Positions 7,001 through 47,722 of a stretch of 64,000 nucleotides of DNA are shown here, piece after piece (positions within the stretch are counted from its first letter, which is position 1; each line of letters starts with the position of its first letter). Both the position numbers and the translations under genes were made by a program. The notes under the pieces were generated by a model. The model did no database searches, had not been told where the DNA came from, and saw only the letters and a list, made by a program, of their open reading frames with translations. The stretch is from positions 279,215 through 343,214 of the forward strand of contig CAVQIV010000022.1 in assembly GCA_963712665.1 (NCBI GenBank), read 5' to 3'. This DNA comes from Thermoanaerobaculaceae bacterium (GTDB taxonomy: Bacteria; Acidobacteriota; Thermoanaerobaculia; Multivoradales; UBA5704).

Positions 7001-7104
7001 GCGAAGTCCGCGTACTGGAGATTGAGCTCAGGGAGTGGCGAGAGGGCATCCTTGCCCATCGCGCCGAACGTGCCATAGAGCGCCGCCAGCTCGGCCAGGA
7101 ACAC
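3808..7104 (-). CDS. NRPS module 10: C domain (C-terminal part), A domain, PCP, and N-terminal part of the next C domain
   Basis: [19 protein letters not shown] (core ~5725), SNVSFDAATFEIW, HVYGPTESTTF, YRTGDLVR and [20 protein letters not shown] form the A domain. [10 protein letters not shown] is the PCP core, and [19 protein letters not shown] starts the next C domain. The frame is lost near 7.1-7.3 kb and near 3.8-4.0 kb. Confidence 0.85.
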   Translation of the reverse strand: MFLAELAALYGTFGAMGKDALSPLPELNLQYADFAVWQRQWLQGEALERQLDYWRRALDGAPPVLDLPIDRPRPAVRSARGAHRSFALSPGLAAEVSGLARREGTTLFAALLAGFQVLLARWSGQEDVVVGSPVANRNRLETEPLIGFFVNTLVLRLDLAGDPGFRGALRRVREAVLGASEHQDLPFEKLVEELAPARDGRSTPLFQVLFALQNAAPGTLRFPGLAMEPVETESGLAKFDLLLAIAEAGEGLSATFEYSVDLFEAATIERLADRFNGLLQSVVADPERRVSELPVLSAAERRQVLLTWNETATGYPRNTTLPELFAFWAGRTPAAEALRFGAEVLTYGELDARSNQLACHLQSLGVAPGGLVGVCLERSPELVVTLLAVVKAGAAYLPLDPAYPAERRAWMLEDAGASAVVTRESLEADAGRIASLDGDEPVRQGSTDSLAYVMYTSGSTGRPKGIAIPQRAIVRLLFATDYVELGPADRIAHLSNVSFDAATFEIWGALLHGGCLVGIARDVALSPRELAAELGRQRISAMFLTTALFNQVAREAPEGFRGLRHLLFGGEACDPRWVREVLAKGAPERLLHVYGPTESTTFALWHRVESVPEGAATVPIGRPLANTTAYVLDRRLQPAVPGAPGELFLGGDGLADGYWRRPELTAERFVPNPFARSAAEAGSRLYRTGDLVRHRPDGSVEFMGRADHQVKIRGFRIEPGEIEAALATHPAVREAVVVARENGPGGRRLVAYVASTETSARELRAFLAERLPDYMVPAAFVVLPALPLTPNGKVDRRALPDPEAPAGDAGAYVAPRDREEEILAGLWSEVLGVPRVGAHDDFFELGGHSLLATQLVSRVRQAFGREVALAALFERPTVAGLAGLLRPEDQPAAVWLQAPRIVAAPRTGELPLSFAQERLWFLDQLEPGGSAYNVPAPVRLRGRLDRAALAASLREVVRRHEALRTTFPEVEGRPVQHVAPAPALALPVVDLADLPAAARDGEVRRLVLQDARRPFDLARGPLLRTALAAVRRRRCRAAAQPASHRGRRLVDRGAGERARGALHRRPGGPAVAPTRAARAVWGLRPLAARVAPGRGPGG

Positions 7105-10100: not shown

Positions 10101-12664
10101 TCGCCGTCGAGATCGAGCCGGAGGTGTGCACCGCGGAAGGTCTCCACCGGCGGCCGCGGCCGGTCGAGAGGGAGGTCGAGCCCCGCAATCCCCGCGAGCT
10201 GCCGCCGCCAGTAGGCGAGCTCGGCGGCCTGCACCTCGCCCTGCAGCCAGCTCCGCTGCCACACGGCGTAGTCGGCGTACTGGATGGGCAGCGGCGGCAG
10301 CGGCGAGGGCCGGCCGGCCGCGAACGCCTCGTAGAGGGCCACCACCTCCCGTAGCAGCACCTGGCTCGACCAGCCGTCGGAGACGATGTGGTGGAGGTTG
10401 AACAGCAGCGCGTGCCGCTCGGGCTTCAGCCTTACCAGGGCGAAGCGGACGAGAGGTCCACGCGCGAGGTCGAACGGCCGGCGGGCGTCCCCGGTGGCGA
10501 GCTCGCCCAGGGTCCGCTCGCGCTCGGCCGGCGGCAGCACGGCCAGGTCCACCAGCGGCAGCTTCACCTCCGGATGGGGCGCGATCGCCTGGAACGGGCG
10601 CCCATCGCGATCGCCGAAGATGGTGCGTAGCGCCTCGTGCCGTTCCACGATCTCGCGCAGCACCGCCGCCAGCACCGGCACCGCCAAAGGGCCTTCCAGG
10701 AGGACGGCGGCGGGCATGCTGTAGAAGGCGGTGCCCGGCTCGAGCTGCTCCAAGAACCAAAGCCGCTCCTGGGCGAACGAGAGGGGCAGGCCGGCCGCGC
10801 CCGGGGCAGGCCGCGGCACGGGGACCAGGGGCGGCGCCACGGCACGGCCGGCGCGAGCCACGGCCAGGGCCAGCCCGGCCACCGTGGGGCTCTCGAACAG
10901 GGCCCGCAGCGGCACCTCGCGGCCGAAGACCTGGCGCACCTGAGAGATGAGCTGGGTGCCCAGCAGCGAGTGCCCTCCCAACGCGAAGAAGTCATCGCAG
11001 ATCCCCACCCGATCGAGCGCCAGGACCTGGGCGAAGATCCCGGCTAGCAGCTCCTCCTCGGCCGTGCGGGGCGCTACGGAATCCGCCTCCCCGGCCTGGA
11101 CCACAGGCGCCGGCAGAGCGCGGCGGTCCACCTTGCCGTTGGGGGTGAGCGGCAGCGCCGGCAGCTCCATCCACAGCGAGGGCAGCATGTACTCCGGCAG
11201 ACGCGACCGCAGGTGCTCGCGCAGCTCGTCCGGGAAGGCGAGGGGGACCGCTGGGCGCCGCGCCACGTAGGCCACCAGACGGAGGTCGCCCGGCACGATC
11301 TCGCGCGCCACGACCGCGACGGATTCGACCGCCGGATGGCCCGCCAGCACGGCCTCGACCTCCCCCAGCTCGATGCGGAAGCCCCGCACCTTGACCTGGT
11401 GATCGGCACGGCCCAGGAATTCTATGTCTCCCGGGCTCCCCGGCCGGCCCGTGGACCAGCGCGCGAGATCGCCCGTGCGATAGAGGCGAGCCCCAGGGAT
11501 GGCCGCGAAGGGATCGGGGACGAACCGCTCGGCCGTCAGGTCGGGGCGGCCGAAATAGCCCCGTGCGAGGCCCGCTCCCCCCAGACACAGCTCGCCGGGA
11601 ACGCCGACCGGCACGGGCCGCAGACCCCGGTCGAGCACCAAAGCCCGGCTGTTGGGCAGCGGCCTCCCGATGGTGGGCTCGCCCGGTCCCTCCCCCACCT
11701 CCAGCTCCGTGGAGTAGGTGGTGTCCTCTGACGGACCGTAGAGGTTGAGGACCCGTCCCACCGTGCCCAGCGTCCGGACGCGATCGACCAGGGACCGCCG
11801 CAGCGCCTCTCCCGCCAGGTTGACCGTGCGCACCGAGGCCGGCACCGCTCCCAGCCGCAGCAGCTCCGCCATGGCCGAGGGGACGGTGTTGATCAGCGTC
11901 ACCTCGCCCCGCGCCGGCAGCTCCGGCAGGGCCAGGGCGTTGTCCGCCAGGATCACGGTGCCGCCCCAGGAGAGCGGTGCGAACAGCTCGAAGACCGAGA
12001 GGTCGAAGCAGACCGAGGTGGCGGCCAGCGCCCCCGCCAGCTCTCCGGCCGAAAACGTCTGCCGCGCCCAGTGCATCAGCTCCACGGCGCTCTGGTGCGT
12101 GATGGCCACCCCCTTGGGCCGGCCCGTGGAGCCCGAGGTGTAGATCACGTACGCCAGGCGGGAGGGATCGGGCCGCGGCAGGTCCCTCACCTCTCTCACC
12201 GGCTCGTCATGGTCCGCCAGAACGATCCGTGCGCTGTCGAAAGGCAGGAGATCGGCGAGTGCTGCGTCCGTCACCACCACCGGGGCCGCGGAGTCGTCGA
12301 GGATCGCGGCCAGGCGCTCGCGCGGGTAGGCTGGATCGAGCGGCACGTAGGCGCCGCCGGCCGCGAGGGTGCCCAGCAGTGCCGCCACCAAGCGCGGCGC
12401 GCGCGGGAGCAGGATGGCCACCGGCACCTCCGGGCCCACTCCCGCGGCCCGCAGCCGTTGCGCCAGCCGGCTCGCCTGCCGCCTCAGCTCGCGGTAGGTG
12501 ACCCGCTCCTCGCCAGAGATCAAGGCTACGGCCTCCGGGCTCAGCGCGGCCTGCGCCGCGAAGAGCTCGTGGAGCATGGACTCGCGGCGATCGGCGATCT
12601 CTCCCCTACCAGCGGCCAGCACCTGAGAGAGCTCCGCCTCGCCGAGGAGGGGCAGGTCTCCCAC
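7028..12664 (-). CDS. NRPS modules 8 and 9: A(DltA-like)-PCP-C-A-PCP-C(N-terminal part), an intact 1878-aa frame
   Basis: The A8 core is [21 protein letters not shown] (~12125), with [17 protein letters not shown]...[10 protein letters not shown]...[14 protein letters not shown]. The A9 core is [21 protein letters not shown] (~8950), with [13 protein letters not shown] and [11 protein letters not shown]. There are two GGHSLL PCP cores and [10 protein letters not shown] domains. Confidence 0.9.
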
Positions 12665-15600
12665 CCGCCGCGCCGGATCGGCGACCGCCGCTCTCGAGCA
12701 GGGCTCGTGAGATGGCCCAGCATACGCGAGGCCGTGGCCGCCTCGAAGAGGTCGCGTGCTGTACTCCAGGGGCCCCGCAGCCTCCCCTCCTCCTCGGCCA
12801 GCGCCAGGGTGAGGTCGAACCTTGCGGTGCCCCTTCCTCCCGGCTGGCGGCGCCGGGCCGAAGGCGCAGGCCGGACAGCCGCAGCTCCCCCAGCGGGGCG
12901 TTCTGGAGGATGAACATCACCTGGAACAGGGGGGTGCGGGCGAGGTCGCGCTGCGGATGCAGCTCTTCGACCAATTTCTCGAAGGGGAGGTCCTGGTGGG
13001 CATAGACGTCGAGCGTGACGCGCGCGGACGCGGCCGAGCAGCTCGGCGAAGGTGGGCTCTCCCTCCAGGCTCGCCCGCAGCACCAGGGTGTTGACGAAGA
13101 AGCCGATCAGCCCCTCCGTCTCCAGCCGGTTGCGGTTGGCGATCGGCGTGCCCACCAGGAAGTCGTCCTGCGCCGCTGTAGCGCGCGAGCAGGGCCTCGA
13201 AGCCGGCGAGGAGCGTCATGAACAGGCTGGCACCCTCGCGACGGCTCAGCTCCAGCAGGTCCTGGAGGAGCGCTGGCCCGAGCTCCAGCGGCTGTGCCCC
13301 GCCCCGGCCCGCGCGCACGGCCGGCCGCGGCCGGTCGGCGGGGAGGTCGAGCTGGAGAGAGGCGCCTGCCAGCCGCTGCCGCCAGTGCGCCAGCTCGCGC
13401 TCCAGGACCGGCCCCGCCATCCAGCCGCGCTGCCAGGCGGCGAAGTCGGCGTACTGGATGGGCAGCGCGGGCAGCGGTGACGGCCGGCCGCTCGCGAACG
13501 CTTCGTGCAGCGCCGCCACCTCGCGCACCAGCACGCCGGTGGACCAGCCGTCGGACACGGCGTGATGCTGGGTGAGCAGCAGCACACCCCGGCTCGCCGC
13601 GAGCCGCAACAGCCGGGCACGCAGCAGCGGCCCGCGCTCCAGGTCGAACGGCAGCAAAGCCTCCTCGCCCGCCAACCGTTCACTCTCCTCCTCCTGGAGC
13701 GTGGCGGGCAGAGAGCCGAGGTCGACGACCGGCAGCACGGTTTCCGGCACCCGCCCGATCCGTTGCACCGGCCGCCCGTCCACTGCCGGGAACACGGTGC
13801 GCAGCACCTCGTGCCGCCGCACCACCTCGCGCAGGCTGGCGTCGAGGACGGCGACGTCGAGGCGTCCTCCCGCCTCGCTCTCCAGGTGGAGGACGGCCGG
13901 CAGGTTGTAGGTGGCCCTGCCCGGCTCCAACCGGTCGAGGAACCAGAGCCTCTCCTGGGCGAACGAGAGCGGCGGCTCGGCTCCCGGAGGCCGCGGCACG
14001 AGGGGCGGCGCCACCAGCGTCGAAGCAGGCTCGACGGCGACGCGAGGCTCGCCCAGCTCGACCGCCAGCTCCTCGATCGTCGGCGCCTCGAACAGCCGGC
14101 GGATCGGCAGCTCGACGCCGAAAGCCGCGCGGGCCCGCGACACCACCTGCGTGGCCAGCAGCGAATGGCCGCCCAGCTCGAAGAAGTTGTCGCGCACCCC
14201 CACCCGCTCCAGCGCCAGCACCTCCGCCCAGATCTGCGCCAGCGCGCTCCTCGCCGGCGGTGCGCGGCGCCACCGCCTCCTGGCGCACCTGGCGCGCCAG
14301 ATCGGGCGCGGGCAGCGCCGCCTGGTCGAGCTTGCCGTTGGCGTTGAGCGGCAGCGCCTCCAGCACCACGAAAGCCGACGGCACCATGTACTCCGGCAGC
14401 TTCCGCTGCAGGAAGCGAACGCAGCTCCTCCAGCGTCCGCTCTCCGCTCCTCCGCCAGCACCACGTACGCCACCAGACGCTTGTCCTCCCGCGCCGTCAC
14501 TGCGCGCACCACGGCCGCGTCGCGCACCGCCGGATGGCTCGCCAGCACCGTGCTCGATCTCCCCCAGCTCGACGCGGAAGCCGCGGATCTTCACCTGGTG
14601 TCGATGCGGCCGAGGTACTCGATCTCGCCAGTCGGCCAGATAGCGCGCCAGGTCGCCCGTGCGATAGAGCCGCGCTCCGGCTGCTGGCGAGACGGATCGG
14701 GAACGAACTTCTCCGCCGTCAGCACCGGGCCGTCCAGATACCCGCGCGGCCACGCAGGCGCCCGCCGACGTACAGCTCGCCCGGCACGCCTGCCGGCACC
14801 GGCTCCAGGTGCGCGTCGAGCAGATGTGATGCGCAGCGTTGGCGATCGGCCGGCCGATCGACGGGATCGCCGGCCGCGTCCGCGGGCTGCCGCGGAGGGT
14901 CAGGGCAGTCACCACGTGCGTCTCGGAGGCGCCGTACTGATTGTGCAGCGAGCAGCCGGGCAGGCGCGCCGAAGAGCGACCGCACCGCGGCGGTTGACCT
15001 GGAGCTGCTCGCCCGCCGTGATGACCTCCCGCAGGCGGACGGCAGCCGATCCTGCTCCGCCGGCCGCCGTCGGCCAGGTGCTTCAGGGCCGCGAACGGCA
15101 GGTGCAGACGCTCGATCGCCTCAGCTTCCAAGAACGCGTTGAGCCCCGCCACGTCGCGCCGCGACCATCTCGCTCGCCAGGACCAGGCGTGCCGCCCGAG
15201 CACCAGCGAGGAGAACACTTCCTGGAACGAGACGCAGAAGCCGAAGGTGGCGAACTGCGACCGTGCGCGCCGCCCCCGAGAGCGGCGAGCGCCGGAGCTG
15301 CCAGTCGCAGAAGGTTGGCGAACGCCCGGTGGGTCGACCAGGATCCCCTTGGGCGTGCCCGTCGAGCCCGAGGTGTAGATGACGTAGATCAGGTTGTCCG
15401 AGCTCGACGCCGCTCGCCGGGTCCTCGCCGCTCTCCTCCGGGAACGGCTCGCGGTCGCCTTCCAGGAGGAGAGCGATCGACCTCCGGCCCGGGAAGTGCC
15501 GCAGCAGGGATTCCTCGGTGATCAGCACCCGCAGCCGGGCATCGCGGATGATGAAGGCCAGGCGGTCCGCCGGATAGGCCGGATCGAGGGCCACCATGCC

Positions 15601-16180
15601 GCCGCCCGCCTTGAGCACCGCCAGGAGCGAGACCAGCATGCCGAGCGAGCGCTCCAGACAGATCCCCACCAGCGACTCGGGGCCTACCCCCTGCCGGCGC
15701 AGGCCGTGGGCCATGCGGTTGGCCCGCAGGTTGAGCTCCTGGTAGGTGAGAGACCGCCCCTCGAAGACAGCGGCCACGGCCTGGGGCGTCCGCCGGACCT
15801 GCTGCTCCACCAGTGGTGAACGCAGGCGGCCTCCGCCGCGGGCTCCTCCGTGCCGTTCCACTCCACCAGCGCCTGGTGACGCTCGGCGGGCGAAAGCAGC
15901 GGCAGGGCCGTGAACGGCTGGTCCGGCGCGGCGACCGCCCCCCGCAGCAGCGCCTCGTAGTGTTGCGACAGGCGCCACGCCGTGGCCGGATCGAAGAGGT
16001 CAGTGTTGAATTCGAGGAGGCCCAGCAGTCTCCCCGCGCTCTCGTGCCAGAAGACCGTCAGGTCGAACTTGGCCGTGGCGGTGTCCACGGGCAGCGGGCA
16101 GAGCACCAGGCCCTCGATCCCAGCGGCGGCCTGCGGCTGGTTCTGCAGCACGCACATCACCTGGAACAGGGGGTTGCGGC

Positions 16181-30406
<14,226 letters not shown>

Positions 30407-31000
30407 AGGGCGCGGCCTCGCCGCTCCCCGCAGCCCGGAGCTGAAGCTCCTCGGCCGGGGTGAGGAGCGGCAGAGCCGACAGGCGGCGTCCGGGGTCTCC
30501 GAGAGCGCCCGCCAGCAGGGTCGTGAAGTGGCCGGCCAGGCGGCGGATCGAGGGCGGCGCTGAAGAGGTCCGTGCGGTATTCGATCCAGCCCGCGAAGCC
30601 CTCCCGCCCCTCCGCCAGCTCGACCGCCAGCTCGAACTTGGCCGCGCCGTTGTGCGCCGTGAGCCGCCGGGCGGCGAGGCCGGGCAGGACCGGCGCCGGC
30701 GCCTCTTCCTGGAGCACGAAGAGCGCCTGGACGAGCGCGCTGTGGTCGCGGCTCCGGCCCGGCGCCAGGGCCTCGACCAGCTTCTCGAACGGGAGATCCT
30801 GGTGGAGCCAGGCGGCGAGCGTCGCCGCGCGCGTCCGCTCGAGCAGCGCGGCGAAGGAGGGATCGCCCGCCAGGTCGGCCCGCAGCGCCAGCAGGTTGAC
30901 GAAGCAGCCGATCAGCTCCTCGATCTCGATCCGCCCGCGGTTGGCCACGGGCGAGCCGACCAGGAGATCGTCCTGGCCGGTATAGCGGCCGAGGAGCGCC

Positions 31001-34000
31001 TCAAAGGCGGCAAGCAGGACCATGAACGGCGTGGCTCCCTCCCGGCGCGCGAGGGCCGCCACTGCCGCGGAAGTCTCCGGGAGACAGCGCCAGCGGCTCC
31101 CGCGCCCCGCGCGAGGACCGCGTCGCCGGGCGCGGCAGGTCGGCCGGCAGGTCGAGGACGAGAGGCGCGCCGGCCAGGCGCTGTCGCGCCGCCTCCAGCC
31201 GGACCTCCAGGGCCTCCCCGGTCAGCCACTGCCGCTCCCACCAGGCGAAGTCGCCGACCTGGACCGGCAGCTCGGCCAGGGGCGAGGGCCGGCCGGCGAT
31301 CGCGGCGCCATAGAGAACCGAGATCTCGCGCAGCAGGAGCCCCAGGGACCAGCCGTCGGAGACGATGTGGTGCATGGCCGCGACCAGCACGTGCTCCTCC
31401 GCCCCCAGCCGCAGCAGGACGGCCCGCAGCAGCGGACCCTGCGCGAGATCGAAGGGCTGTTTCGCCTCGGCTGAGACCAGCCGGTCCACCTCGGAGGTTG
31501 CAGCCGCGAGCCTCGAGAGGTCCACCATGGGCAGCGCTGCGGCCGGCGGCGGCAGAGCCCGCTGTACTAGGCTGCCAGCCATTCCCTCGAAGCGCTCTTC
31601 AAACCGCGAGCGCAGCGCCTCGTGGCGGCGGGTCACCTCTGCGAGCACCGCAGCCAGGGCCGCGACGTCGAGGGGGCCTTCGAGCCACAGGCCACCGGCG
31701 ATGTTGTAGGTGGCCGCGCCGGGCTCCAGCCGGTCGAGGAACCAGAGACGCTCCTGGGCGAAGGAGAGGGGGAGGCCCCGCTCCCGCGCCGCGGGCGGCG
31801 CCGGGACGAGAGGCGGTGCCTCGGCGCCGCGGCCGGCGACCCGCAGCGCCTCGATGGCCGCAGCCAGGGCCGCGGGCGTCGGCGCCTCGAAGATCAGCGA
31901 GAGGGGGACCTCGACGCCGAAGGCCGCGCTCGCCCGCGAGGCCACGCGGGCCGCCAGCAGCGAGTGGCCGCCAGAGGCGAAGAAGTCGTCGAAGGCGCCG
32001 GACCCCGGGGTCCCCAGCACCTCGTCCCAGATCCCCGCCAGCAACGCCTCCGCCGGCGTGCGCGGCGCGCCCCCCTCTGCCTCGGGCTTGAAGGACGGGG
32101 CTGGAAGGGACTGGCGGTCCACCTTACCGTTGGGGGTGAGCGGCAGGGCCTCCAGGGTCATCCAGGCCGTAGGGATCATGGCCTCGGGGAGCCGGCCCCG
32201 CAGGTGAGCCCGCAGCTCGCCAGCGAGGTCTGCGAAGGCGACGCGGGGGACCACGTAGGCGGCGAGGTGCGTCTCTCCCGTCTCCTGCCGCACCACCACC
32301 GCGGCTTGCCGGACGCCCGGGTGCTCGCCGAGCACGGCCTCGATCTCCCCCAGCTCGATGCGGACTCCCCGCACCTTGACTTGGTGGTCGATACGGCCGA
32401 GGAACTCCAGGCTGGCATCCTGGGCTCGCGGCGCCCAGCGGACGAGGTCGCCCGTGCGATAGAGACGGGCATCCGGGGCCTCGCCGAACGGGTCGGGCAC
32501 GAAACGCTCCGCCGTCAGCTCCGGCCGGTTCAGGTAGCCCCGCGCCAGGCTCTCGCCGCCCAAGGCCAGCTCGCCCGGCACTCCCGCCGGCAGGGGGCGC
32601 AGATGGCGGTCGAGGACATAGGCGCGGGTGTTGTCGATCGGGCGGCCGATGGGCGGCGACTGGTCCTCAGGGGAGACCGGAATGCAGGTCGCCACCACCG
32701 TGCTCTCGGTGGGCCCGTAGTGGTTGTAGAGGGTGAACGGCAGGCCCGGGCGCGGCCCCCGGTGCAGGCGGTCGCCGCCCGTCAGCAGGGCCCGCAACGG
32801 GATGTCCGACGGCCAATCTTCGGCCAAGGCGGCCTCGGCCAGCGGCGTGGGCAGGAAGGCGATCGAGATCGCCTGTTCGGCCAGCCAGGCCACGAGGCGC
32901 CGCGGCGAGGCGCGGACCTCTTCCTCCGGCACGTGCAGGCTCGCGCCCGCCGCCAGATAGGGCCAGATCTCCCACACCGCGGCGTCGAAGCCGGGACCGG
33001 CCACCTGCGACGCCCGGTCGGCCGGCGTCACGGCGTAGGTCCTCCGGTGCCAGGAGACGAGGTTGGCCAGCGCGCCGTGGGCGATGACGACTCCCTTGGG
33101 CCGGCCGGTCGAGCCGGAGGTGTAGACGACGTAAGCGGCCTGATCCGGCAGCACCTGGATGCCGGGATTCGCACCTCCGGTGTCCGGCTCGGCATCGACG
33201 CTCAGGATCCGGGCGTCCAATGACACGAGATTGGACAGCGACGCCGCCAGCCGCGACTGGGTCAGCAGAAGCTGTACAGAGCCATCCCCCCAGGCGTCCG
33301 CGAGCTGCCAGGCCAGCCGTTCCGCTGGATGCGCCGGATCGAGAGGCACGTAGGCCCCTCCCGCCTTGAGCACGGCGAGCAGCGACACCACCATCTCCGG
33401 CGAGCGCTCCATGAGGACGCCCACCCGGGTCTCCGGCGTCAGACCGTTGGCCAGCAGCCAGCCGGCCAGCCGGTTTGCCCGTTCGTCGAGCTCCCGATAG
33501 GTGAGCCCGTCTACCGCCGGGGCGCCCGGGGCCGCCGCCGCCCGCTCCTCCACCAGCCGGTGGACCGGGACCTTCCAGGCATAGGAGGCCGCGGTGCGGT
33601 TCCAGTCGCCCAGCACCTGCCACTCCTCGGCGGCGGTGAGCAGCGGCAGCTCCGAAAGGAGACGACCCGGAGCGGCCAGTGCCCCGGCCAGCAGCGCCGC
33701 ATAATGACCGGCCAGACGCTCGACGGTAGCGGCGTCGAAGAGATCGGGATTGAAACGCAGCGACGCGCCGAGCCCACCCTCGATCTCGGCGATGACCAGG
33801 GCCAGGGCGAACGGCGAGCCGGCCGGCGGCAGGTCGAGCGATTCGAGCTCCAGACCGCCCAAGGCCAGGCGCGAGCCGGCCATGCCGAGGGCGAAGCCGC
33901 CGAGATCGGCGCCCGCGCCGCGGGCCCTCTCGAAGGCGAAAACGACGTCGAAGAGGGGCGAGCGGCTGGGATCGCGCCGCGGCTGCAGACGCTCGGCCAG

Positions 34001-35599
34001 CAGGGCGAAGGGCAGGTCCTGGTGCTCGAAGGCGCCCAGCACGACCCGCCGCACCTCGGCGAGAGCAGCGGTGAAGGACGGGCCACCACCGAAGTCCGTG
34101 CGCAGCGCCACCGGGTTGACGAAGTAGCCCACCATGCCGGCGGTGGCCGCCGAGCGGCCGGCCGTGGGCGAGCCGATCAGCAGGTCGTCCTGACCGGTGT
34201 AGCGGGCGAGCACGGCCTCGAAGGCCGCCAGCAGCGCCATGAACGGCGTCGCCCCCTGGCGGTGAGCCAGTGCATTGACCTCACCGGTCACGGCGTCCAA
34301 CTGGAAGGAGCGGGCGTCGCCGGCCCAGGTCTGCACGGCCGGCCACGGCCGGTCTGTGGGCAGGTCGAGGCGCGGCGGCTCGGTCCCGCCCGGCGCCAGC
34401 GTCTCCCGCCACCAGCTCCACAGGCTCTCCCCCCACGGCCCGGCCAGCCGTTCCGCCTGCCACCGCGCCCAATCGGTGTAGCGCAGGGCGAGGGGCGGCA
34501 GCACCGCCGCCGGCCGTCCCACCTCATGGGCATAGAGAGCCCCCAGATCGCGCGCCATCACCGCCAGCGACGCGAAATCGGCGATCAGGTGATGTACCGC
34601 GAGGAACAGGATCTCGCCCTCGGGATCCCGGACCAGCCCCACCCGCAGCAGCGGCCCCGTTTCGAGATCGAAAGGCCGCCAGGCGTCGTCCAGGCTCGCG
34701 GCGATCCCCACCTCGGGGGCAAGCCGCTCGTGCACCCGCTGAACCGGCCCTGCAATACCCTCCGCGAACGTGGTGCGCAGCGCCGGGTGCCGCTCGACGA
34801 GCGCCTCGACCGCACGCTCCAGGGCCGCGACGTCCACCGCTCCCCGCACCCGCGCGGCCCCGGCGAGATGGTAGGCGAGGCTCTGAGGAGCCAGGCGGTG
34901 CAGGAACCAGAGGGCCTGCTGGCCATGGGAGAGCGGATGCTCGCCCGTTTCCTCACCGCTCGCCACGGGCTCGCCAGGGAGAGCCGCCAGCGCGGGCGTC
35001 TCCAGCCCCGTCAGGATCTCGGCCGCCAGCTCGCCCAACGTGGCTCCCTCCAGCAGGGCGGCGAGCGACGGCGCGGTACCCAGGACAGCCTCGGCCCGCG
35101 CGCGGATCTCCACGGCCGCCAGGGAGTCGAGGCCTGCGGCGGTGAGCGGCCGGTCGGCGGCCAGGCGCCAGGGAGCGACGCCCAGGGAGCGCGCGGCCTC
35201 GAGGCGCAGCCAGAATTCGAGCGCCGGTCCGCGCTCGGCCGGTGGCAGAGCCAGCAGCGCCTCGCGGCTCAGGCCGGATTGGAACGCGACAGCTTCGTCC
35301 GCTCCCTCCGTCCCGGCGCCCACGGCGCTCCTGCCCACCACCGCCAGCTCGCCCGCGAGCCAGGCGGCGCGGCTGGCGTGGCGCTGGATCTTGCCGCTGG
35401 AGGTCTTGGGGATCGAGCCCATGCGCACCAGGACGACCTCGTGCACCTGCACCTCGTGGGCCTCGGCCACGGCCTGGCGCACGGCCTCGGCAGCGGCGGC
35501 GGCCTCCCCTTCGCGGCGGCGGTCCATCTCCTGCACCACCACCAGCCGCTCCTCGCCCGCGACGTCGACGGCGAAGGCCGCGCCGCTGTCGGCGCGCAA
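31001..35599 (-). CDS. NRPS initiation region: FAAL C-terminal end, ACP, starter condensation domain, A1, PCP, and N-terminal part of the next C domain
   Basis: The FAAL tail is ...RMGSIPKTSSGKIQRHASRAAWLAG. The carrier-protein region is LTAAGLDSLAAVEIRARAEAVLG. The starter C domain carries HPLSHGQQALWFLHRL...AVHHLIADFASL. The A1 core is [21 protein letters not shown] (~33110), with GPGFDAAVWEIWPYL, LYNHYGPTESTVV, YRTGDLVRW and [30 protein letters not shown] is the PCP core. It is followed by [19 protein letters not shown]...HHIVSDGWS. Confidence 0.85.
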   Translation of the reverse strand: MRADSGAAFAVDVAGEERLVVVQEMDRRREGEAAAAAEAVRQAVAEAHEVQVHEVVLVRMGSIPKTSSGKIQRHASRAAWLAGELAVVGRSAVGAGTEGADEAVAFQSGLSREALLALPPAERGPALEFWLRLEAARSLGVAPWRLAADRPLTAAGLDSLAAVEIRARAEAVLGTAPSLAALLEGATLGELAAEILTGLETPALAALPGEPVASGEETGEHPLSHGQQALWFLHRLAPQSLAYHLAGAARVRGAVDVAALERAVEALVERHPALRTTFAEGIAGPVQRVHERLAPEVGIAASLDDAWRPFDLETGPLLRVGLVRDPEGEILFLAVHHLIADFASLAVMARDLGALYAHEVGRPAAVLPPLALRYTDWARWQAERLAGPWGESLWSWWRETLAPGGTEPPRLDLPTDRPWPAVQTWAGDARSFQLDAVTGEVNALAHRQGATPFMALLAAFEAVLARYTGQDDLLIGSPTAGRSAATAGMVGYFVNPVALRTDFGGGPSFTAALAEVRRVVLGAFEHQDLPFALLAERLQPRRDPSRSPLFDVVFAFERARGAGADLGGFALGMAGSRLALGGLELESLDLPPAGSPFALALVIAEIEGGLGASLRFNPDLFDAATVERLAGHYAALLAGALAAPGRLLSELPLLTAAEEWQVLGDWNRTAASYAWKVPVHRLVEERAAAAPGAPAVDGLTYRELDERANRLAGWLLANGLTPETRVGVLMERSPEMVVSLLAVLKAGGAYVPLDPAHPAERLAWQLADAWGDGSVQLLLTQSRLAASLSNLVSLDARILSVDAEPDTGGANPGIQVLPDQAAYVVYTSGSTGRPKGVVIAHGALANLVSWHRRTYAVTPADRASQVAGPGFDAAVWEIWPYLAAGASLHVPEEEVRASPRRLVAWLAEQAISIAFLPTPLAEAALAEDWPSDIPLRALLTGGDRLHRGPRPGLPFTLYNHYGPTESTVVATCIPVSPEDQSPPIGRPIDNTRAYVLDRHLRPLPAGVPGELALGGESLARGYLNRPELTAERFVPDPFGEAPDARLYRTGDLVRWAPRAQDASLEFLGRIDHQVKVRGVRIELGEIEAVLGEHPGVRQAAVVVRQETGETHLAAYVVPRVAFADLAGELRAHLRGRLPEAMIPTAWMTLEALPLTPNGKVDRQSLPAPSFKPEAEGGAPRTPAEALLAGIWDEVLGTPGSGAFDDFFASGGHSLLAARVASRASAAFGVEVPLSLIFEAPTPAALAAAIEALRVAGRGAEAPPLVPAPPAARERGLPLSFAQERLWFLDRLEPGAATYNIAGGLWLEGPLDVAALAAVLAEVTRRHEALRSRFEERFEGMAGSLVQRALPPPAAALPMVDLSRLAAATSEVDRLVSAEAKQPFDLAQGPLLRAVLLRLGAEEHVLVAAMHHIVSDGWSLGLLLREISVLYGAAIAGRPSPLAELPVQVGDFAWWERQWLTGEALEVRLEAARQRLAGAPLVLDLPADLPRPATRSSRGAREPLALSPGDFRGSGGPRAPGGSHAVHGPACRL

Positions 35600-35761: not shown

Positions 35762-37088
<1,327 letters not shown>

Positions 37089-37440
37089 TCAGCATCTCGT
37101 CTCTTCTCCGTACGGCGACCGCGCACGCCGCGGATCAAGCGGCCTCGACTCCTGTTTTCCTCTCCCTTGAATATGAAGGAGACCCGGCAATCGGCGAGTG
37201 GCGAAAATCTTGCGCCTGGCTCCAGTTTCGGCGGACGTTTTGCTGCGGAGCTCGCTGGCCAATCTACTGCTTCGCCCTCCCACAAGTCAATCGCAGACGG
37301 CCTGGATCCCGGTCGCAGAAAGCCTCGCCATCAAAGTGCCTGTCAAGGCGGAAAGCGGGACCACTTGCGACGCAGACATACGGTTTCGGCTATAGTACCC
37401 GCGTTGTCCTCACGCCGATGGATTTGAGGTTTTAGCTGAC

Positions 37441-39900
37441 ATGGAATCACTCTGGAAAGATCTGGGACTTTCGCTTCGCGCTTTGCGCCGCAGCCCGGCG
37501 TTCACCCTCGCCGCCGTCGCCTCCCTGGCCCTCGGCATCGGCGCCAATACCCTGATCTTCATCTTCCTGAACGCCTTTTTCCTGAAGGGCCTGCCGGTGG
37601 CCGATCCCGAGGGCCTGGTGGCGCTCTATTCTCTCGACCTCGACAAACAGGACCTGCTCCCCTTCTCCTACCTGAGCTTCGACGACCTGCGGCGGGACAA
37701 CGAGGCGTTCTCCGGCCTCGCCGCCTACCGCAACCTGTCGGTGGGCCTGACCGGCGACGCCGAGCCGGCCTGGCTCCAGGGCGAGATCGTGTCCGGCAGC
37801 TACTTCGACGTGCTGGGCCTGCGCCCCTTCCGCGGCCGTTTCTTCCTCCCCGAGGAGGATTCGACGCCGGGCGGCCACCCCGTGGCCGTGCTCTCTCACG
37901 CCCTCTGGCAGAGCCGCTTCGCCTCCGATCCCAAGATCGTCGGCCGGGTGATCCAGCTCAACGGCCTGGGCTTCACCGTGATCGGCATCACGCCGCCGGA
38001 GTTCAAGGGCCTGAGCATCCTCAACACGCCGCCCCAGATCTGGGTCCCCATGGCGATGTATCGCGACCTGTCGAGCGGGCCGGCGAAGACCTGGCTGGAC
38101 AAGCGGGGCGCCCTCGTCTTCTCCGCCGTGGCGCGCCTGAAGCCCGGCCGGCGGATCGAGGGCGCCCGCGCCTTTTTGAAGACGTTTGCCAGCCGGCTGG
38201 AGCGCGAGTATCCGGACGCCAACCGGAGCCTCAGCTTCACCGCCGTCCCCCTGTCGCGGGCGACGCTCCCCCCGGGCGCGCGCGGCGGCTTCGTGCTGTC
38301 AGCCGGCCTCCTCGCGGCGGTCGTCGGCCTGCTGCTGCTGATCGCCGGCGCCAACGTGGCGAACCTGCTGCTGGCCCGGGCCCTGGCGCGCAGCGGCGAG
38401 ATCGCCGTGCGCCTCTCCCTGGGCGCCGGGCGCGGGCGCCTGCTGCGCCAGCTCTTGACCGAAGGCGCCCTGCTCGGCGTGCTGGGCGGCGGGGCAGGGC
38501 TCCTGGTGGCGATCCTGGGGCGCCGCATCCTCTGGTCGCTGCGCCCGCCGTTCTTCCCCATCACGCTGGACCTCGGGCTCGACTTCCGGGTGCTCTTCTT
38601 CACCTTCGCCGTCGCCCTCGCCACCGGAATCCTCTTCAGCCTGGCCCCCGCCTTCCAGTCGTTCCGCCTCGACCTGTCGACCGTCCTCACCCGCCAGTCG
38701 CGCTCCGGCACCGGCCGCGGCGACGGCTCGGGCTCGCTGCTGCGCGAGTCGCTCATCGCCGTGCAGGTGGCGCTGGCGATCGTGGTGCTGGCCGGCGCTG
38801 GTCTCTTCGTGCGCAGCCTGCTCGCCGTCGAGAAGGTCGATCCCGGCTTCGAGACCGAGAAGCTGTTCGTCATCCCCTTCGACCTCGGGGCGCGGGGTTA
38901 TGCGCCGGCACGGGCCCAGGAGTTCTACCGCCAGGTCGTGGCGCGGGCCGCGACTCTGCCGGGGGTGCAGAGGGCCGCCGTGGCCAACCGCTTCCTGCTG
39001 GCGGCGGGAGTCCTGCGGATGTCGGTCGAAGCGGAGGGGCAGGAGGCGCGGACGGGCAACGAGCAGATCACGGCCGGGGTCACTATCATCGGCGACGGCT
39101 ACTTCGACACCGTCGGCATCGCCAAGCGCTCCGGGCGCACCTTCGACGACAACGATCGCGAGGGCAGCCTGCCCGTGGTGATGATCAACGAGAGCCTCGC
39201 CCGCCGCCTCTGGCCGGGCCAGCCGGCCGTGGGCAAGCGCCTGCGCCTGGGCGCCGAGGGGTGGCTCCAGGTGAAGGGCGTCGTGGCCGACGCCCGCACC
39301 AGGGGACTGCGCGAACCGCCGGAGCCCAACGCCTACCGGCCGGTGCTCCAGAGCTTCGCGCCGGTGATGCTGCTGCACGTGCGCACACAGGGCCGCCGGA
39401 GCCCGTGCTGGAGCCGATAAGGCGGCTGGTGCAGGGGATGGACCCCGCCCTGCCGCTGCTCGAGCCGCGCACCATCGGCCAGGTGCGCAAGCCTGTCGCT
39501 GTGGGCGCCGCGCATGGGCGCCGGCCTCCTCTCGCTCTTCGGCCTCCTCGCCACGGTGCTCGCGGCGCTCGGCGTCTACGGCGTGGTGGCCTACTCGGTG
39601 GGCCAGCGGCGGCGCGAGATCGCCATCCGCATGGCCATCGGCGCGGAGCGCCGGAACGTCCTGGGCCTCATCCTGCGCCAGGGGATGCTGCCGGTCGCCA
39701 TCGGCATCGCCGCCGGCATCGCCGGCGCCCTGGCCCTGGCGTGGACGGTCCGCAGCCTGCTCTTCGGCATCGGCGCCGCCGATCCCCTGGCCTTCGGCGG
39801 CGCCGCGCTGGTGCTCGCCTTTGTCGCCCTCGCCGCCGTCTACTTCCCCGCCCGCCGCGCCTCCGGGCTCGATCCGGTCAACGCGCTGCGCGAGGGCTGA
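37441..39900 (+). CDS. ABC-transporter permease of the MacB/FtsX type with duplicated FtsX domains (ADOP-like), frame-broken near 39.40-39.52 kb
   Basis: MESLWKDLGLSLRALRRSPAFTLAAVASLALGIGANTLIF is a typical N-terminal TM helix. A MacB-like periplasmic region follows. The first FtsX core is LLLIAGANVANLLLARALARSGEIAVRLSLGAGRGRL. The C-terminal part continues in two other frames: DPALPLLEPRTIGQVR in ORF 39261..39914, then GLLATVLAALGVYGVVAYSVGQRRREIAIRMAIGAERRNVLGLILRQG in ORF 39514..39900. Confidence 0.75.
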
Positions 39901-39925
39901 GCCCCCACTCCTGAGGAGAGACGCC

Positions 39926-42900
39926 TTGCCGGAAACCCAGACCCAGTCCCCTCCTTCGTCCACGGCGGTCCTGCCCGGCCCTCGCGGCGGCCTCAAGCTC
40001 GGCCCGGGCGCCGACCGCCTCGCCGGCTACCTCGACGCCATCCGCCGGCATGGCGAGATCGTCTGCCTCACCGACAGCGAGGACAGCCGGCAGTTCCTCG
40101 TCAGCCACCCCGAGCACGTCAAGCACGTGCTGCAGGACAACCAGGCCAGCTACCGGCACAACTACCGCAAGAAGATCCTCATGGGCGGCAAGAGCCTCGC
40201 CCTCTCCACCGGCGAGGCCTGGCGCCGGCGGCGGCGCGTGCTGCAGCCGATCTTCAACCTGCAACGCCTGTCGGCCTTGGCGCCCAGGATGGTGGCCGGC
40301 ACCGAGCGCCTGGTGGAGCGCTGGCGCGAGCCGGCCCGCCGCGGCGAGCCGCTGGACGTGGCCGAGGAGATGATCGCCCTCACCCTCGACCTGCTGATCG
40401 AGAGCCTGCTGGGGGCAGGAGCTGGCCGCGGCAACCTGCGGCAGACGGTGACCACGGCCTTCGAATATTTCAACGACCGGGTACGCAATCCGCGCACCCT
40501 GCCCGTCTCCATCCCCACGCCCCGCAACCTGCGCCTGCTCAAATCGCTGCACGACCTGCGGCGTGCCGTGCAGCGGACGATCGACGAGCACCGCGAGAGC
40601 GACGCGCCGGCCGGCGACCTCCTGTCGATGATGATCGCCGCCCGCGACGAGCAGACGGGCGAGGTGATGACCTCCGAGCAGCTTCTCGACGAGCTGATGA
40701 TGCTGCTCGTCATGGGTCATATGACGACCGCCATGGCCGCCACCTGGACCTGGCACCTGCTCGCCCGCCATCCGCAAGTCGACGAGCGGGTGCGCGCCGA
40801 GATCGCCGCGGTGGTGGGAGACCGGCCGGCGGAGTTCAAGGACGTGGCCCGCCTCGTCTACACCCGTATGGTGATCGAGGAGACGCTGCGCCTCTATCCC
40901 CCGAGCTGGGGGTTCGGCCGCCTCGCCCTGGCCGACGACGAGATCGGCGGCTACCGCATCCCCGCCGGTTCGGTGTTGACCCTCTCCCCCTGGGTCACTC
41001 ACCGGCGGCCGGAGCTGTGGCCGGACCCCGACCGCTTCGATCCCGAGCGCTTCGACCCGAAGCACACGGGCGAGCGGCCGCGCTTCGCCTACTACCCCTT
41101 CGGCGGCGGCCCCCGCGGCTGCATCGCCCGCGACATGGCGCTGATGGAGCTCCCCCTGATCCTCGCCACCGTGGCCCAGCGCTACCGGCTGCGGGCCGTG
41201 GCCGGCCATGCCGTGGTGCCGGTGCAGGGGCTCGCCCTGCGCCCCCGCAGCGGCCTGCGCATGACGCTCGCGGACGCCGCGGCCCCGGCGCGCCCGGAGC
41301 CATTGCCGCGTCCCTTCGCCACTCTCCCCGAGCTGCTCCTCGGCGAAAAAACCGCCGCGGCTCCGGCCTTCCTGCACAAGGTGGACGGCGAATATTCGCC
41401 CATGGCCCGCGCCGAGCTGCTGGAGCGCGCCGGCCGCCTTGCCCTGGCCCTGGCCAGTCTCGGCCTCGCGCCCGGAGAGCGGGCCGCGCTTCTCGCCCGC
41501 AACAGCCCCGAGTGGGCCGTGGCCGACCTCGCGGTGCTGGCCGCGGGCGGCGTGACCGTCCCCCTCCAGGCCGACCTCGTTGCCGACGAGGCGGTCGGCC
41601 GGATCCGCGCCAGCGGTGCCCGCTACCTCCTCGCGGGCGCCGGCCGCATGGCCGAGCTCCTCCCCCGCCGCAACGAGCTGCCGGACGTACGCCTGTGGCT
41701 CCAGCTCGACGGTCACGGCCCAGTGGGCGAAGGCGTGACGACCCTGCGCTCGCTGCTGGAGCCGGCGCCGCAGGGAGACCTCGCGGCCCTCGTTCGCCAA
41801 CGCCGCCCAGAAGACCCTGCGACCCTGCTCTACACCCCTGGCACCACGGGCGAGCCCAAGGCCGTGGCACTCTCGCACGACAACCTCGCGGCCGCCGTCC
41901 ACGGCCTCGCCGAGGCCCTGCCCATCCACCCGGGAGACACGGCCTTCTCCTATCTCCCCCTCACCCGGCCGGCCGAGCGGAGCCTCCTCTACGCCGGCCT
42001 TCTGCGCGGTGCCACCGTGGCCTTCGCCGGCTCGCCCGACACGGTCGATGAGGATCTCCGGCAGGTGCGGCCCCACTTCTTCAGCTCGACACCGGAATTC
42101 TGGAAACGGCTCCTCAACTGGCTGTTCAATGCCGTCCAGGGCAAGTCGCCCCGCCGTCAACGGTTCTTCCAGTGGGGGGTCCAGGTCAGCCGCGCGGCGC
42201 TGCGGTTCCGCGTCCGGCAGGAGCGCCCGCCGGGCCGGCTGGGCTGGCAGCTCGCCCTGGCCGACCGTTTCGTCTGGTCGGTGGTGCGCCAGCGCCTGGG
42301 CGGCCGCCTGCGCTTCGCCGTCTCCGGCGGCGACCGCCTCCCCCACGGCTGGATCACCTTCCTGTGGGCCGCCGGCCTCTCCATCTACGAGAGCTACGGC
42401 CTCACCGAGGCCTCGGGCGTGGTGACGATCGCTACGCCCAAGGCCGTCCGCCTGGGCACGCCCGGCAGCCCCCTGCCGGGCGTCGAGGTGCGCATGGCCG
42501 CCGGCGGCGAGCTCCTGGTGCGGGGCGCGACGGCCACGGGAGTCGACGCCGATGGCTGGCTGCACACCGGCGACGCCGGCTGGCTCGACGACGCAGACAT
42601 GCTCAACGTTTTCGGCCGGCTGGGCGACCTCTGGACCGGAGCGGAGGGCAAGAAGGTCTCCCCCGGCGGCCTCGAATCGCTCTTCAAGTCCAGCCACTTC
42701 GTCACCCACGTCCTGGTGGTGGGGGCGGGCCGGCCGTTCAACGCCGCCCTGCTCGTCCCCGACTTCGCGGCCCTGCGGCACTTGGCCCAGCGCCGCGGCA
42801 TCGCCTTCTCCTCGCTGGAGGAGTTGGTGCGTGACGAGCGGGTGCGCGAGGTCGTCGGAAACGACATCAAGGGCTTCAACGACAAGCTCGCCCCCCACGA

Positions 42901-43042
42901 CAAGCTCCGCACCTGGGACCTCCTCCCCCGCGAGCTGGCCGCCAGCGAGCTCACCGCCACGGGCACCCTGCGGCGGGAGGTCGTGATGGAGCGGTGCGCC
43001 GGGGAGATCGAGCGGCTGTATAAAGAAGAAAAAGCGGAGTAA
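39926..43042 (+). CDS. Natural fusion of a cytochrome P450 (N-terminal ~460 aa) and a long-chain fatty acyl-CoA synthetase / AMP-dependent ligase (C-terminal ~560 aa)
   Basis: The likely start is TTG 39926-39928, with GAGGAGAG six nt upstream, directly after the permease stop (39898-39900). The P450 part has the EXXR motif EETLRLYPP, PERF, and the heme loop FGGGPRGCIARDMALMEL. A ~16-aa linker (DAAAPARPEPLPRPFA) is in the same frame with no stop. The ligase part has TYSPMARAELLERAGRLA, LLYTPGTTGEPKAVALSHDNL, ESYGLTEASGVV, GWLHTGDAGWLD and GKKVSPGGLE. Confidence 0.8.
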   Translation: MPETQTQSPPSSTAVLPGPRGGLKLGPGADRLAGYLDAIRRHGEIVCLTDSEDSRQFLVSHPEHVKHVLQDNQASYRHNYRKKILMGGKSLALSTGEAWRRRRRVLQPIFNLQRLSALAPRMVAGTERLVERWREPARRGEPLDVAEEMIALTLDLLIESLLGAGAGRGNLRQTVTTAFEYFNDRVRNPRTLPVSIPTPRNLRLLKSLHDLRRAVQRTIDEHRESDAPAGDLLSMMIAARDEQTGEVMTSEQLLDELMMLLVMGHMTTAMAATWTWHLLARHPQVDERVRAEIAAVVGDRPAEFKDVARLVYTRMVIEETLRLYPPSWGFGRLALADDEIGGYRIPAGSVLTLSPWVTHRRPELWPDPDRFDPERFDPKHTGERPRFAYYPFGGGPRGCIARDMALMELPLILATVAQRYRLRAVAGHAVVPVQGLALRPRSGLRMTLADAAAPARPEPLPRPFATLPELLLGEKTAAAPAFLHKVDGEYSPMARAELLERAGRLALALASLGLAPGERAALLARNSPEWAVADLAVLAAGGVTVPLQADLVADEAVGRIRASGARYLLAGAGRMAELLPRRNELPDVRLWLQLDGHGPVGEGVTTLRSLLEPAPQGDLAALVRQRRPEDPATLLYTPGTTGEPKAVALSHDNLAAAVHGLAEALPIHPGDTAFSYLPLTRPAERSLLYAGLLRGATVAFAGSPDTVDEDLRQVRPHFFSSTPEFWKRLLNWLFNAVQGKSPRRQRFFQWGVQVSRAALRFRVRQERPPGRLGWQLALADRFVWSVVRQRLGGRLRFAVSGGDRLPHGWITFLWAAGLSIYESYGLTEASGVVTIATPKAVRLGTPGSPLPGVEVRMAAGGELLVRGATATGVDADGWLHTGDAGWLDDADMLNVFGRLGDLWTGAEGKKVSPGGLESLFKSSHFVTHVLVVGAGRPFNAALLVPDFAALRHLAQRRGIAFSSLEELVRDERVREVVGNDIKGFNDKLAPHDKLRTWDLLPRELAASELTATGTLRREVVMERCAGEIERLYKEEKAE

Positions 43043-43185
43043 GTTGCCGGCGGGACGCCAGCGGTCCCAGGGGGCGCGCGCCTCCACATCTACCCATATC
43101 TAGTAGCCCCGTCTTCCCCTCCCCCATATCTTGTGGTCTCGGCATCAGCTCTGATAAGCTCCCTTCGTCACGTTGAAGGGAGCCC

Positions 43186-46726: not shown

Positions 46727-46728
46727 AG

Positions 46729-47238: not shown

Positions 47239-47263
47239 GCCGGTCATCGCTCCCGGAGGCTCT

Positions 47264-47722
47264 ATGGCAGAGGAGTCACCCGAAGCTCAGCTCGAACGCT
47301 TCATCGACAGGTTCACGCCCGAGATCGGCGCCCTGGGTCGGGAGGCGCTCTCCCGGTTGCGGGCCATCCTGCCTCCCGCCTTGGAGATGATCTACGACAA
47401 CTACAATGCGCTGGTCATCGGCTTCTGCCCGACGGAGCGCCCCTCGGAGGCGATCTTCTCAATCGCGATGTATGCACGGTCGGTCGCTCTCTGCTTCCTG
47501 CAGGGCGCCGGCCTGCCCGATCCCCAGCAGCGGCTGCGAGGCGGCGGCAACACGGCTCGCCACATCGTCCTCGGCAGCGCGGCGGATCTGGACGAGCCCG
47601 CGGTCCGCGAGCTGATCGCGCAGGCGCTCGAACGCGCCGTCAAGCCGTTCGACGGCACGGTTCGCAGCCGGCTCGTCATCCGGTCCATTTCGGCGAAGCA
47701 GCGTCCCCGACGCCCAGTGTAG
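47264..47722 (+). CDS. DUF1801-like small protein
   Basis: 152 aa; VALCFLQGAGLPDPQQRLRGGGNTARHIVLGSAADLDEPAVRELIAQA resembles the DUF1801 C-terminal pattern. This is a family recollection only. Confidence 0.45.
   Translation: MAEESPEAQLERFIDRFTPEIGALGREALSRLRAILPPALEMIYDNYNALVIGFCPTERPSEAIFSIAMYARSVALCFLQGAGLPDPQQRLRGGGNTARHIVLGSAADLDEPAVRELIAQALERAVKPFDGTVRSRLVIRSISAKQRPRRPV

Follow-up and report, generated by a model that had tools for sequence, protein, structure and literature searches.

In Bacillus, lipoinitiation of surfactin uses the cytochrome P450 YbdT (CYP152) and the acyl-coenzyme A (CoA) ligases LcfA and YhfL, which together supply the starter condensation (C) domain. The plant cutin and suberin pathway combines CYP86A omega-hydroxylases with long-chain acyl-CoA synthetases (LACS), and cassettes of the JamABC/TtuABC type consist of an ANL ligase, an acyl carrier protein (ACP) and a desaturase. 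Natural P450 fusions such as P450BM3 (CYP102A1), CYP116B and XplA are also known, the P450 being joined in them to an electron-supplying redox domain. Here we describe a gene in a 64,000-nucleotide stretch of contig CAVQIV010000022.1 from a Thermoanaerobaculaceae bacterium (hereafter the window) that fuses a P450 to a domain resembling long-chain acyl-CoA synthetases (ACSL). The gene (39926..43042, plus strand) and its homologues lie mostly beside the initiation module of lipopeptide-type assembly lines in Thermoanaerobaculia. We propose, at roughly even odds, that the fusion is a lipoinitiation accessory that oxidises the fatty acyl starter of these assembly lines and either activates or presents it.

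Results

A P450 and an ACSL-like domain are encoded by a single gene

An earlier reading of the window from its letters and open reading frames (ORFs), referred to below as the original prediction, had described a complete P450 that runs through a short Pro/Ala linker into a complete fatty-acid ligase. The ORF in question extends over 39821..43042 (+) and encodes 1073 amino acids. Its likely start is the TTG at 39926, with the sequence GAGGAG seven bases 5' of it (39913-39918) and the stop codon of an upstream permease gene at 39898-39900, 25 nt away. Initiation at this TTG gives a protein of 1038 residues followed by the stop codon, which is 100% identical to a database entry (P0001, NCBI/ENA) and is used below for the numbering of motif residues. 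When the 1073-residue ORF was searched with Pfam, three domains were found in a single frame: p450 (residues 76-467, E = 1.4e-75, 255.3 bits against a threshold of 22.8), AMP-binding (residues 514-893, E = 3.8e-61, 207.4 bits, threshold 29.9) and AMP-binding_C_3 (residues 939-1070, E = 3.7e-11, 43.9 bits, threshold 20.8).

The P450 half ends with the residues GLRMTLA (residue 449, nt 41272) and the ligase half begins with TLPELLL (nt 41321). The two are joined by the Pro/Ala-rich linker DAAAPARPEPLPRPFA of 16 residues (residues 450-465, 41273..41320 (+)), which is in frame and free of stops, as the original prediction had it, and no stop codon or change of frame between the two halves was found in the sequence 41100-41520. 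A long ORF alone is weak evidence here, since the window has a GC content of about 73% up to roughly 47 kb, where chance long ORFs are common, and since an antisense ORF of 1069 amino acids (39878-43087, minus strand) is nearly co-extensive with the fusion gene. The GC content of third codon positions (GC3) was 0.85-0.99 in one frame in every 240-nt window of 39926-43039 and was continuous across the junction, where the lowest 60-nt value was 0.75. The antisense ORF appears to be an artefact of the high GC content, the codon-position pattern fitting the plus frame. The ORF was also colinear with its relatives over the full length with no frameshift, and 39926-43042 is confirmed as a genuine single gene in which a P450 is fused to an ACSL-like domain.

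An AlphaFold2 model of the whole chain, built from an alignment of 53 sequences, had a mean predicted local distance difference test score (pLDDT) of 88.6 and a predicted template modelling score (pTM) of 0.81, with the linker as a coil of lower pLDDT. For a chain made of parts of 450 and 570 residues, such a pTM suggests that the two domains are held in a defined arrangement.

The fusion is conserved and under purifying selection

The original prediction had suggested a protein-database search for the two-domain architecture. Among 5.8 billion proteins, 57 cluster representatives had the three Pfam domains, in whole or in part, and 53 of these were full-length homologues (1003-1209 residues, 83-40% identity) with both domains in one ORF. 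They came from JGI, ENA, NCBI and Logan assemblies, including short-read metagenome-assembled genomes (MAGs) made with MEGAHIT and JGI metagenomes. The linkers of the 53 homologues were Pro/Ala-rich, variable in sequence and roughly 10 to 60 residues long, a variation typical of an evolved interdomain linker. The view that the fusion is no frameshift artefact was thus borne out, the architecture being kept in many independent assemblies, at identities as low as 40%, with linkers of differing length.

When 1.84 billion representatives at 50% identity were scanned exhaustively with HMMER, only six full-length ones were recovered, which indicates that the family is small. Among the GTDB species representatives the fusion was present in 11, all Thermoanaerobaculia or Acidobacteriota MAGs, and all named homologues belonged to a single soil-dwelling group, the Thermoanaerobaculia (Acidobacteriota). 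The ratio of non-synonymous to synonymous substitution rates (dN/dS) was 0.25-0.39 for the P450 half and 0.24-0.52 for the ligase half, values that are probably inflated by the constrained GC3; both halves were under purifying selection, and dN of the ligase half was about 1.7 times that of the P450 half.

In the original prediction the architecture was not known to be a described family. In full-text literature searches on P450-ligase fusions, Thermoanaerobaculia NRPS (nonribosomal peptide synthetases) and ADOP permeases we found no paper describing it, a halogenase/AMP-binding preprint on sponges being of no relevance, and the homologues carried only automatic database names such as "cytochrome P450". 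No unfused adjacent pair of the same P450 clade and ligase clade was found in the exhaustive protein search or in the loci examined. Several candidates for such a split orthologue were considered and rejected. The gene next to that of the stand-alone P450 P0123 on its 3' side encodes NRPS C and adenylation (A) domains and not a ligase, and the stand-alone ligase-like protein P0155 is encoded behind an ABC ATPase on a contig just 2 kb long. The proteobacterial P450-plus-ligase matches in L030, L056 and L078 are separate genes with a different ligase of the FAAL-ACP type (FAAL, fatty acyl-AMP ligase). In the long-read locus L094 the fusion was called as two genes with a 52-nt overlap; several other genes of that locus are also fragmented, and a frameshift within the fusion seems more likely than a true split.

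The fusion follows a permease gene at the head of megasynthases

The fusion gene is the second gene of a two-gene operon, the first being an ADOP-family duplicated permease of the FtsX/MacB type (37441..39900 (+)). The permease orthologue in L001 matches TIGR03434 with 871 bits against a cut-off of 622. An ADOP permease gene was found directly upstream of the fusion in 17/17 loci, with a gap of at most about 90 nt in all except L003 (281 nt). Scans for promoters and terminators of the operon gave a single weak promoter-like site, on the minus strand at 37290-37261, at the head of the NRPS.

Upstream DNA sufficient for the megasynthase context was available for 16 distinct loci (17 for the permease). 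In 14 of the 16 the permease-fusion pair was divergent from the first module of an NRPS or of a mixed polyketide synthase (PKS)-NRPS, so that the adjacency expected of an accessory gene is conserved. In the window the NRPS head is a FAAL-type loading domain (35762..37285 (-)) that matches the DIP2-like model and is divergent from the operon; its true start is probably near 37.09 kb, homology to relatives beginning at residue 68 of that ORF. The rest of the lipopeptide NRPS (2301..35599 (-)) comprises the tail of the FAAL domain, a loading thiolation (T) domain at the 5' end of the minus-strand ORF 31001-35599 and then C-A-T modules distributed over several ORFs. Ten A domains were present in the NRPS ORFs scanned (to position 2301), from where the gene continues toward the left end of the window; in the relatives L001 and L003 the NRPS is one gene of about 13,000 codons. 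The original prediction had placed the fusion beside a FAAL-primed NRPS, and the FAAL head is indeed present; the NRPS lies on the opposite strand, with the ADOP permease gene in between.

The 14 megasynthase heads were of four kinds: FAAL-T-C in nine loci (the window, L001, L003, L007, L010, L011, L012, L015 and L018), T-C in two (L006 and L093), a PKS-NRPS beginning with a ketosynthase (KS) domain in two (L004 and L090) and C-first in one (L091). Five heads are thus without a FAAL of their own, and such T-, C- and KS-first heads therefore need an acyl-activating enzyme in trans. With the window FAAL as tblastn query no match was obtained in the FAAL-less loci L004 and L006, and the gene tables of L090, L091 and L093 showed no AMP-binding genes beyond the fusion and the megasynthase. 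The motifs of the fusion showed no systematic difference between loci with and without FAAL in this small sample. What lies 3' of the fusion changes from locus to locus (SMC, flavin halogenase or monooxygenase, lactonase, methyltransferase), which argues that the link between fusion and megasynthase is more than inherited synteny.

Some neighbouring genes were recorded in addition. A methyltransferase gene lies directly 3' of the fusion in L093 (8885-9691), and genes for flavin-dependent halogenases or monooxygenases lie near the fusion or near a related stand-alone P450 in L004 (13193-14788), L006 (17617-19245), L007 (13135-14712), L091 (13169-14551) and L089 (2737-4320).

The P450 half resembles a fatty-acid epoxidase and lacks the I-helix acid

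The P450 domain (PF00067) has its Pfam envelope at 40046..41221 (+), and the fold continues to the residues RMTLA at nt 41272. The motifs quoted in the original prediction were all recovered, EETLRLYPP at residue 318, PERF at 373 and the heme-binding loop FGGGPRGCIA at 392 (41099..41128 (+)). E319 and R322 of the K-helix motif EETLR are invariant in the fusion family, as are the PERF motif and the heme-loop Cys399 (nt 41120-41122; 53/53 members). The loop ends in CIA throughout the family instead of the usual CIG.

The description of the P450 as complete did not hold for the I-helix. The acid-alcohol pair (A/G)Gx(D/E)T(T/S) is replaced by MGHMTT (G264-H-M-T-T268 at 40715..40729 (+)), in which the Thr residues are kept and the acid is Met. 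This position is Met in 45/53 fusion members and Asp or Glu in 0/53, whereas the outgroup P450s of the same search and CYP184A1 have AGHETT and CIG. Canonical monooxygenation cannot be assumed for a P450 with this motif. True monooxygenases that lack the I-helix acid exist, CYP51 having His and CYP7A1 Asn, and the Met is therefore better taken as a sign of unusual proton delivery than of inactivity. Two relatives of the P450 half were seen in other settings: in P0059 a P450 of the same MGHMTT clade is joined to a methyltransferase, and a stand-alone P450 with the same unusual motifs also adjoins an ADOP permease and an NRPS.

Among solved structures, CYP184A1 of Streptomyces avermitilis (7wzl/7wzm; sequence match E = 2.8e-63) comes closest; one of the two entries contains oleic acid. 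In Foldseek the identity was 32% and the template modelling score 0.84-0.86. A passage in PMC11214959, citing Kim et al. 2022, describes CYP184A1 as an epoxidase of fatty acids whose pocket is long and narrow. The next solved matches were CYP170A1, CYP97A/C, CYP46A1, CYP4B1, CYP3A, CYP120 and CYP102, all oxidisers of lipids or terpenoids. The identity to CYP184A1 is below the 40% of the nomenclature convention, which places the P450 half outside CYP184, and by this measure it would be a new CYP family. No fused flavin or iron-sulfur reductase domain was found with Pfam in the fusion protein, so that it is not a self-sufficient P450 of the CYP102 or CYP116B type.

The ligase-like half is of the ACSL type and has an altered A10 motif

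The ligase half consists of an AMP-binding (ANL) N-terminal domain (PF00501; 41360..42499 (+), 207 bits) and an ACSL-type C-terminal subdomain AMP-binding_C_3 (PF23562; 42635..43030 (+)), both above the gathering thresholds, and is by this combination of the ACSL type. By its domains it would not be a FAAL: the C-terminal match is AMP-binding_C_3 and not DIP2-like, and no PP-binding domain was found with Pfam. The best NCBIfam match was FadD11 (NF038343; 248 bits against a cut-off of 950) and the closest solved relative is distant (E = 2.5e-20); going by these matches the ligase half would be an unnamed ACSL-like clade. Its AlphaFold2 model superposed better on structures in the adenylate conformation (root mean square deviation about 4.5-5 Å) than on those in the thioester conformation (about 10 Å).

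Several core motifs are close to the canonical form. The A3 P-loop (YTPGTTGEPK, 41831-41860 (+), followed by A) agrees with the pattern (T/S)(S/G)G(T/S)TGxPKG at near-canonical level, and A5 (YGLTE), A7 (TGD, 42566-42574 (+)) and A8 (GR) are likewise near canonical, the last two lying just 5' of the C-terminal subdomain. In the fusion family T881 and G897 are invariant, G882 and D883 are each kept in 52/53 members and R898 in 45/53.

The ligase had also been called complete in the original prediction, and this does not hold for two positions: in this protein the catalytic Lys of A10 is Thr and the His of A4 is Arg. The A10 motif of the fusion, TATGTLRR (42953..42976 (+)), aligns without gaps to TPTLKVKR of canonical stand-alone relatives and has Thr1014 (nt 42965-42967) at the place of the catalytic Lys. 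In the fusion family the G at -1 and the R at +2 and +3 are nearly invariant. By search pattern, 83/116 stand-alone relatives have the Lys at the canonical position, and 14/15 of those outside the pattern show TPTxK on inspection. A further variant, TPKL(S/N)xRR with a Lys two residues upstream, occurs in 18/116 ordinary ACSL homologues (P0263-P0378), and four fusion members also have a Lys there. The reading that loss of the A10 Lys means a dead enzyme was softened in view of these 18 ordinary ACSLs. At the A4 position the fusion family has Arg in 27 members and His in 17, as compared to His in 106/116 stand-alone relatives.

Two other ligase-like genes were noted. In L088 (2-1863) P0155, which is without the A10 Lys and has a degenerate P-loop, starts at the stop codon of the ATPase gene of an ABC transporter. 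L011 has a second ligase-like paralogue (18625-20199), about 40% identical to the fusion over residues 450-960 of the latter; it is situated 5 kb downstream of the fusion gene and is cut off by the contig end.

Frameshifts in neighbouring genes and the rest of the window

The permease gene of the window has two compensating frameshifts at about 39385 and about 39490, and comparison with the L001 orthologue shows that the stretch between them reads correctly in another frame; this is probably an assembly error. The SMC gene (43186-47238) changes frame at about 45900-45908, and the ORF of the wrong frame, free of stops in this high-GC DNA, extends as far as a DinB_2 gene (46729-47232), so that an ORF of 1350 amino acids results that is spurious. 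The NRPS (2301-37285, minus strand) is divided over at least seven ORFs, suggesting an indel about every 5-6 kb of this assembly. In the right part of the window (47000-64000) the GC content is 0.58-0.68, down from about 0.73.

Discussion

Given that CYP184A1 with oleic acid is the closest structure, that the other P450 matches act on lipids or terpenoids and that the ligase half is of the ACSL type, we infer that the substrate of the fusion is a long-chain fatty acyl group. As a lipoinitiation accessory the fusion might work as follows. The ligase-like domain would bind a long-chain fatty acid and either activate it or hold an acyl-adenylate or thioester, the P450 domain would oxidise the acyl chain by hydroxylation or epoxidation, and the oxidised, activated acyl group would be handed to the T, C or KS domain with which the megasynthase starts. 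At an NRPS with a FAAL head, such as the one in the window, the FAAL may instead take up the oxidised acid after its release. The ADOP permease could export the lipopeptide or handle lipid. The modified-starter role for which the original prediction had named the fusion a candidate is therefore plausible but unproven: the position at the initiation end in 14/16 loci, the five heads without FAAL and the resemblance of the P450 to a fatty-acid epoxidase are in its favour, and the two loci without a megasynthase are not.

A number of observations weigh against this role. Thr is found in place of the A10 catalytic Lys of TPTxKxKR in 43/53 fusion members, and 49/53 have no Lys anywhere in the motif. 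The A4 His of LPLxHxxER is Arg681 in this protein, and the P-loops of distant fusion members (P0048, P0056) are degenerate. Adenylation activity is uncertain because of these three features, and on the strength of such motifs canonical adenylation by the ligase half cannot be assumed. None of the NCBIfam models reached its curated cut-off with the ligase half. The P450 half is without the I-helix acid, and no ferredoxin or reductase gene was seen near the fusion. As for gene context, L013 and L094 have the ADOP-fusion pair with no megasynthase upstream; in these the upstream genes are a histidine kinase and hydrolases (L013, 1-7500) and small metabolic genes (L094, 1-6163). In addition, 9/14 of the neighbouring synthetases, including that of the window, already have a FAAL, and since a FAAL takes free acids and not CoA esters, a CoA ligase looks redundant at these loci.

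The presence of the fusion gene beside FAAL-containing synthetases would be accounted for if the ligase-like half were a non-adenylating docking module for acyl-pantetheine, acyl-CoA or acyl-AMP, for instance on the loading T domain of the NRPS, with the P450 tailoring the lipid tail on-line or on the finished lipopeptide. We consider this unlikely, even though the replacement in A10 affects the Lys specifically and leaves the other positions nearly invariant, the A4 His is variable, and the members with degenerate P-loops still keep both the fusion and the gene context. A ligase dN about 1.7 times that of the P450, with dN/dS nevertheless below 1, fits the same idea, as does the pTM of the model, which suggests a fixed interdomain interface. 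The near-canonical A3, A5, A7 and A8 of the window protein, however, speak for nucleotide binding and possibly catalysis; the motif tolerates variation, as seen from the minority of stand-alone ACSLs with the A10 Lys two residues upstream; and the five heads without FAAL still require a real activating enzyme. In a more far-reaching form, which we regard as quite improbable, the ANL-like domain would have given up adenylation and would now recruit or hold an acyl-pantetheine or acyl-adenylate (e.g. on the loading T domain), feeding a P450 with non-canonical and possibly substrate-assisted oxygen activation, for which the change of the I-helix Glu to Met would be the mark. Such a recruitment module, comparable in role to the X-domain of glycopeptide NRPSs, would link a P450 to an assembly line in a new manner.

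The permease-fusion pair might, on the other hand, form a self-contained lipid unit for uptake, salvage, membrane-lipid remodelling or protection, to which the proximity of an NRPS is secondary, and transporter-plus-ANL pairs such as Mce1/FadD5 and LplT/Aas are systems to which it can be likened. The invariable presence of the ADOP permease at short distance upstream, the two loci without an upstream megasynthase and the Lys-less stand-alone ligase relative whose gene overlaps with that of an ABC ATPase at the stop codon are all compatible with this. We nevertheless give it a low probability, because the pair is held at the megasynthase head in 14/16 loci despite varied downstream genes and initiation architecture, and because the permease itself fits a biosynthetic cluster, permeases of the MacB/FtsX type being common exporters in lipopeptide gene clusters. 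Finally, the indel errors in the ADOP, SMC and NRPS genes of the window and the 52-nt overlap that splits the gene in L094 raise the question of whether the fusion could be an assembly artefact, i.e. the product of a lost stop codon or an indel between two neighbouring genes. We give this next to no credence and rejected it, given the 53 full-length fused homologues from many independent assemblies, the variable in-frame linkers of these homologues, the codon-position GC pattern that is unbroken at the junction and the absence of any unfused adjacent pair from the exhaustive protein search and the loci examined.

If the fusion both oxidises and activates fatty acids, it would be a compact natural catalyst for oxygenated acyl thioesters, with uses in lipopeptide-tail engineering and in the preparation of hydroxy or epoxy fatty acyl-CoAs. 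The fusion is the marker of an uncharacterised lipopeptide-cluster type that recurs in uncultured Thermoanaerobaculia, and it is relevant to the question of how assembly lines recruit tailoring enzymes. With two textbook catalytic residues consistently missing under purifying selection, it is well suited as a test case for non-canonical chemistry of P450s and ANL enzymes. The invariant pairing also offers a first clue to the function of the ADOP orphan permeases of Acidobacteria, for which our literature search returned passing mentions only.

Comparison with known systems

CYP184A1, the nearest structural relative, shares the EXXR, PERF and Cys-loop motifs with the P450 half of the fusion. 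It differs in being a stand-alone protein with no ligase domain, in having AGHETT in the I-helix and in the CIG at the end of its heme loop. The P450 fusions P450BM3, CYP116B and XplA are, like the protein described here, natural single chains with a P450, and CYP102 is among the significant matches; their partner is a redox domain, whereas the partner here is a substrate-activating ANL domain.

With regard to pathway logic, the surfactin system comes close, in that the fatty acid is hydroxylated by a P450, converted to its CoA ester by an ANL ligase and accepted by a starter C domain, and one of the loci with the fusion (L091) has a C-first NRPS. The surfactin enzymes are, however, separate and unlinked, YbdT belongs to another P450 family (a peroxygenase), and the ligases have the canonical A10 Lys. 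In the CYP86A/LACS pathway a fatty-acid-oxidising P450 and an ACSL with the same type of C-terminal domain yield oxygenated acyl-CoAs, but these are separate, membrane-bound eukaryotic proteins with no connection to an NRPS. The JamABC/TtuABC cassettes resemble the fusion in that a PKS/NRPS cluster begins with genes for an ANL ligase and an oxidative enzyme, which together give a modified fatty acyl starter, and differ in that the oxidative enzyme is a membrane di-iron desaturase and not a P450, the proteins are separate and there is a dedicated ACP.

Two related arrangements came out of our own searches. P0110 is a FAAL-ACP-P450 fusion of 1200 residues, and in Gammaproteobacteria a cassette of P450, FAAL-ACP and KAS III genes was seen in L056 (3017-7367) and L030 (9833-14168), with gaps of 4 nt between the first two genes. 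These uncharacterised systems have in common with the fusion a P450 of the same broad clade combined with an ANL fatty-acid activator. Unlike it, they use a FAAL-type ligase with a fused carrier, have the domains in reversed order or in separate genes and keep the canonical I-helix.

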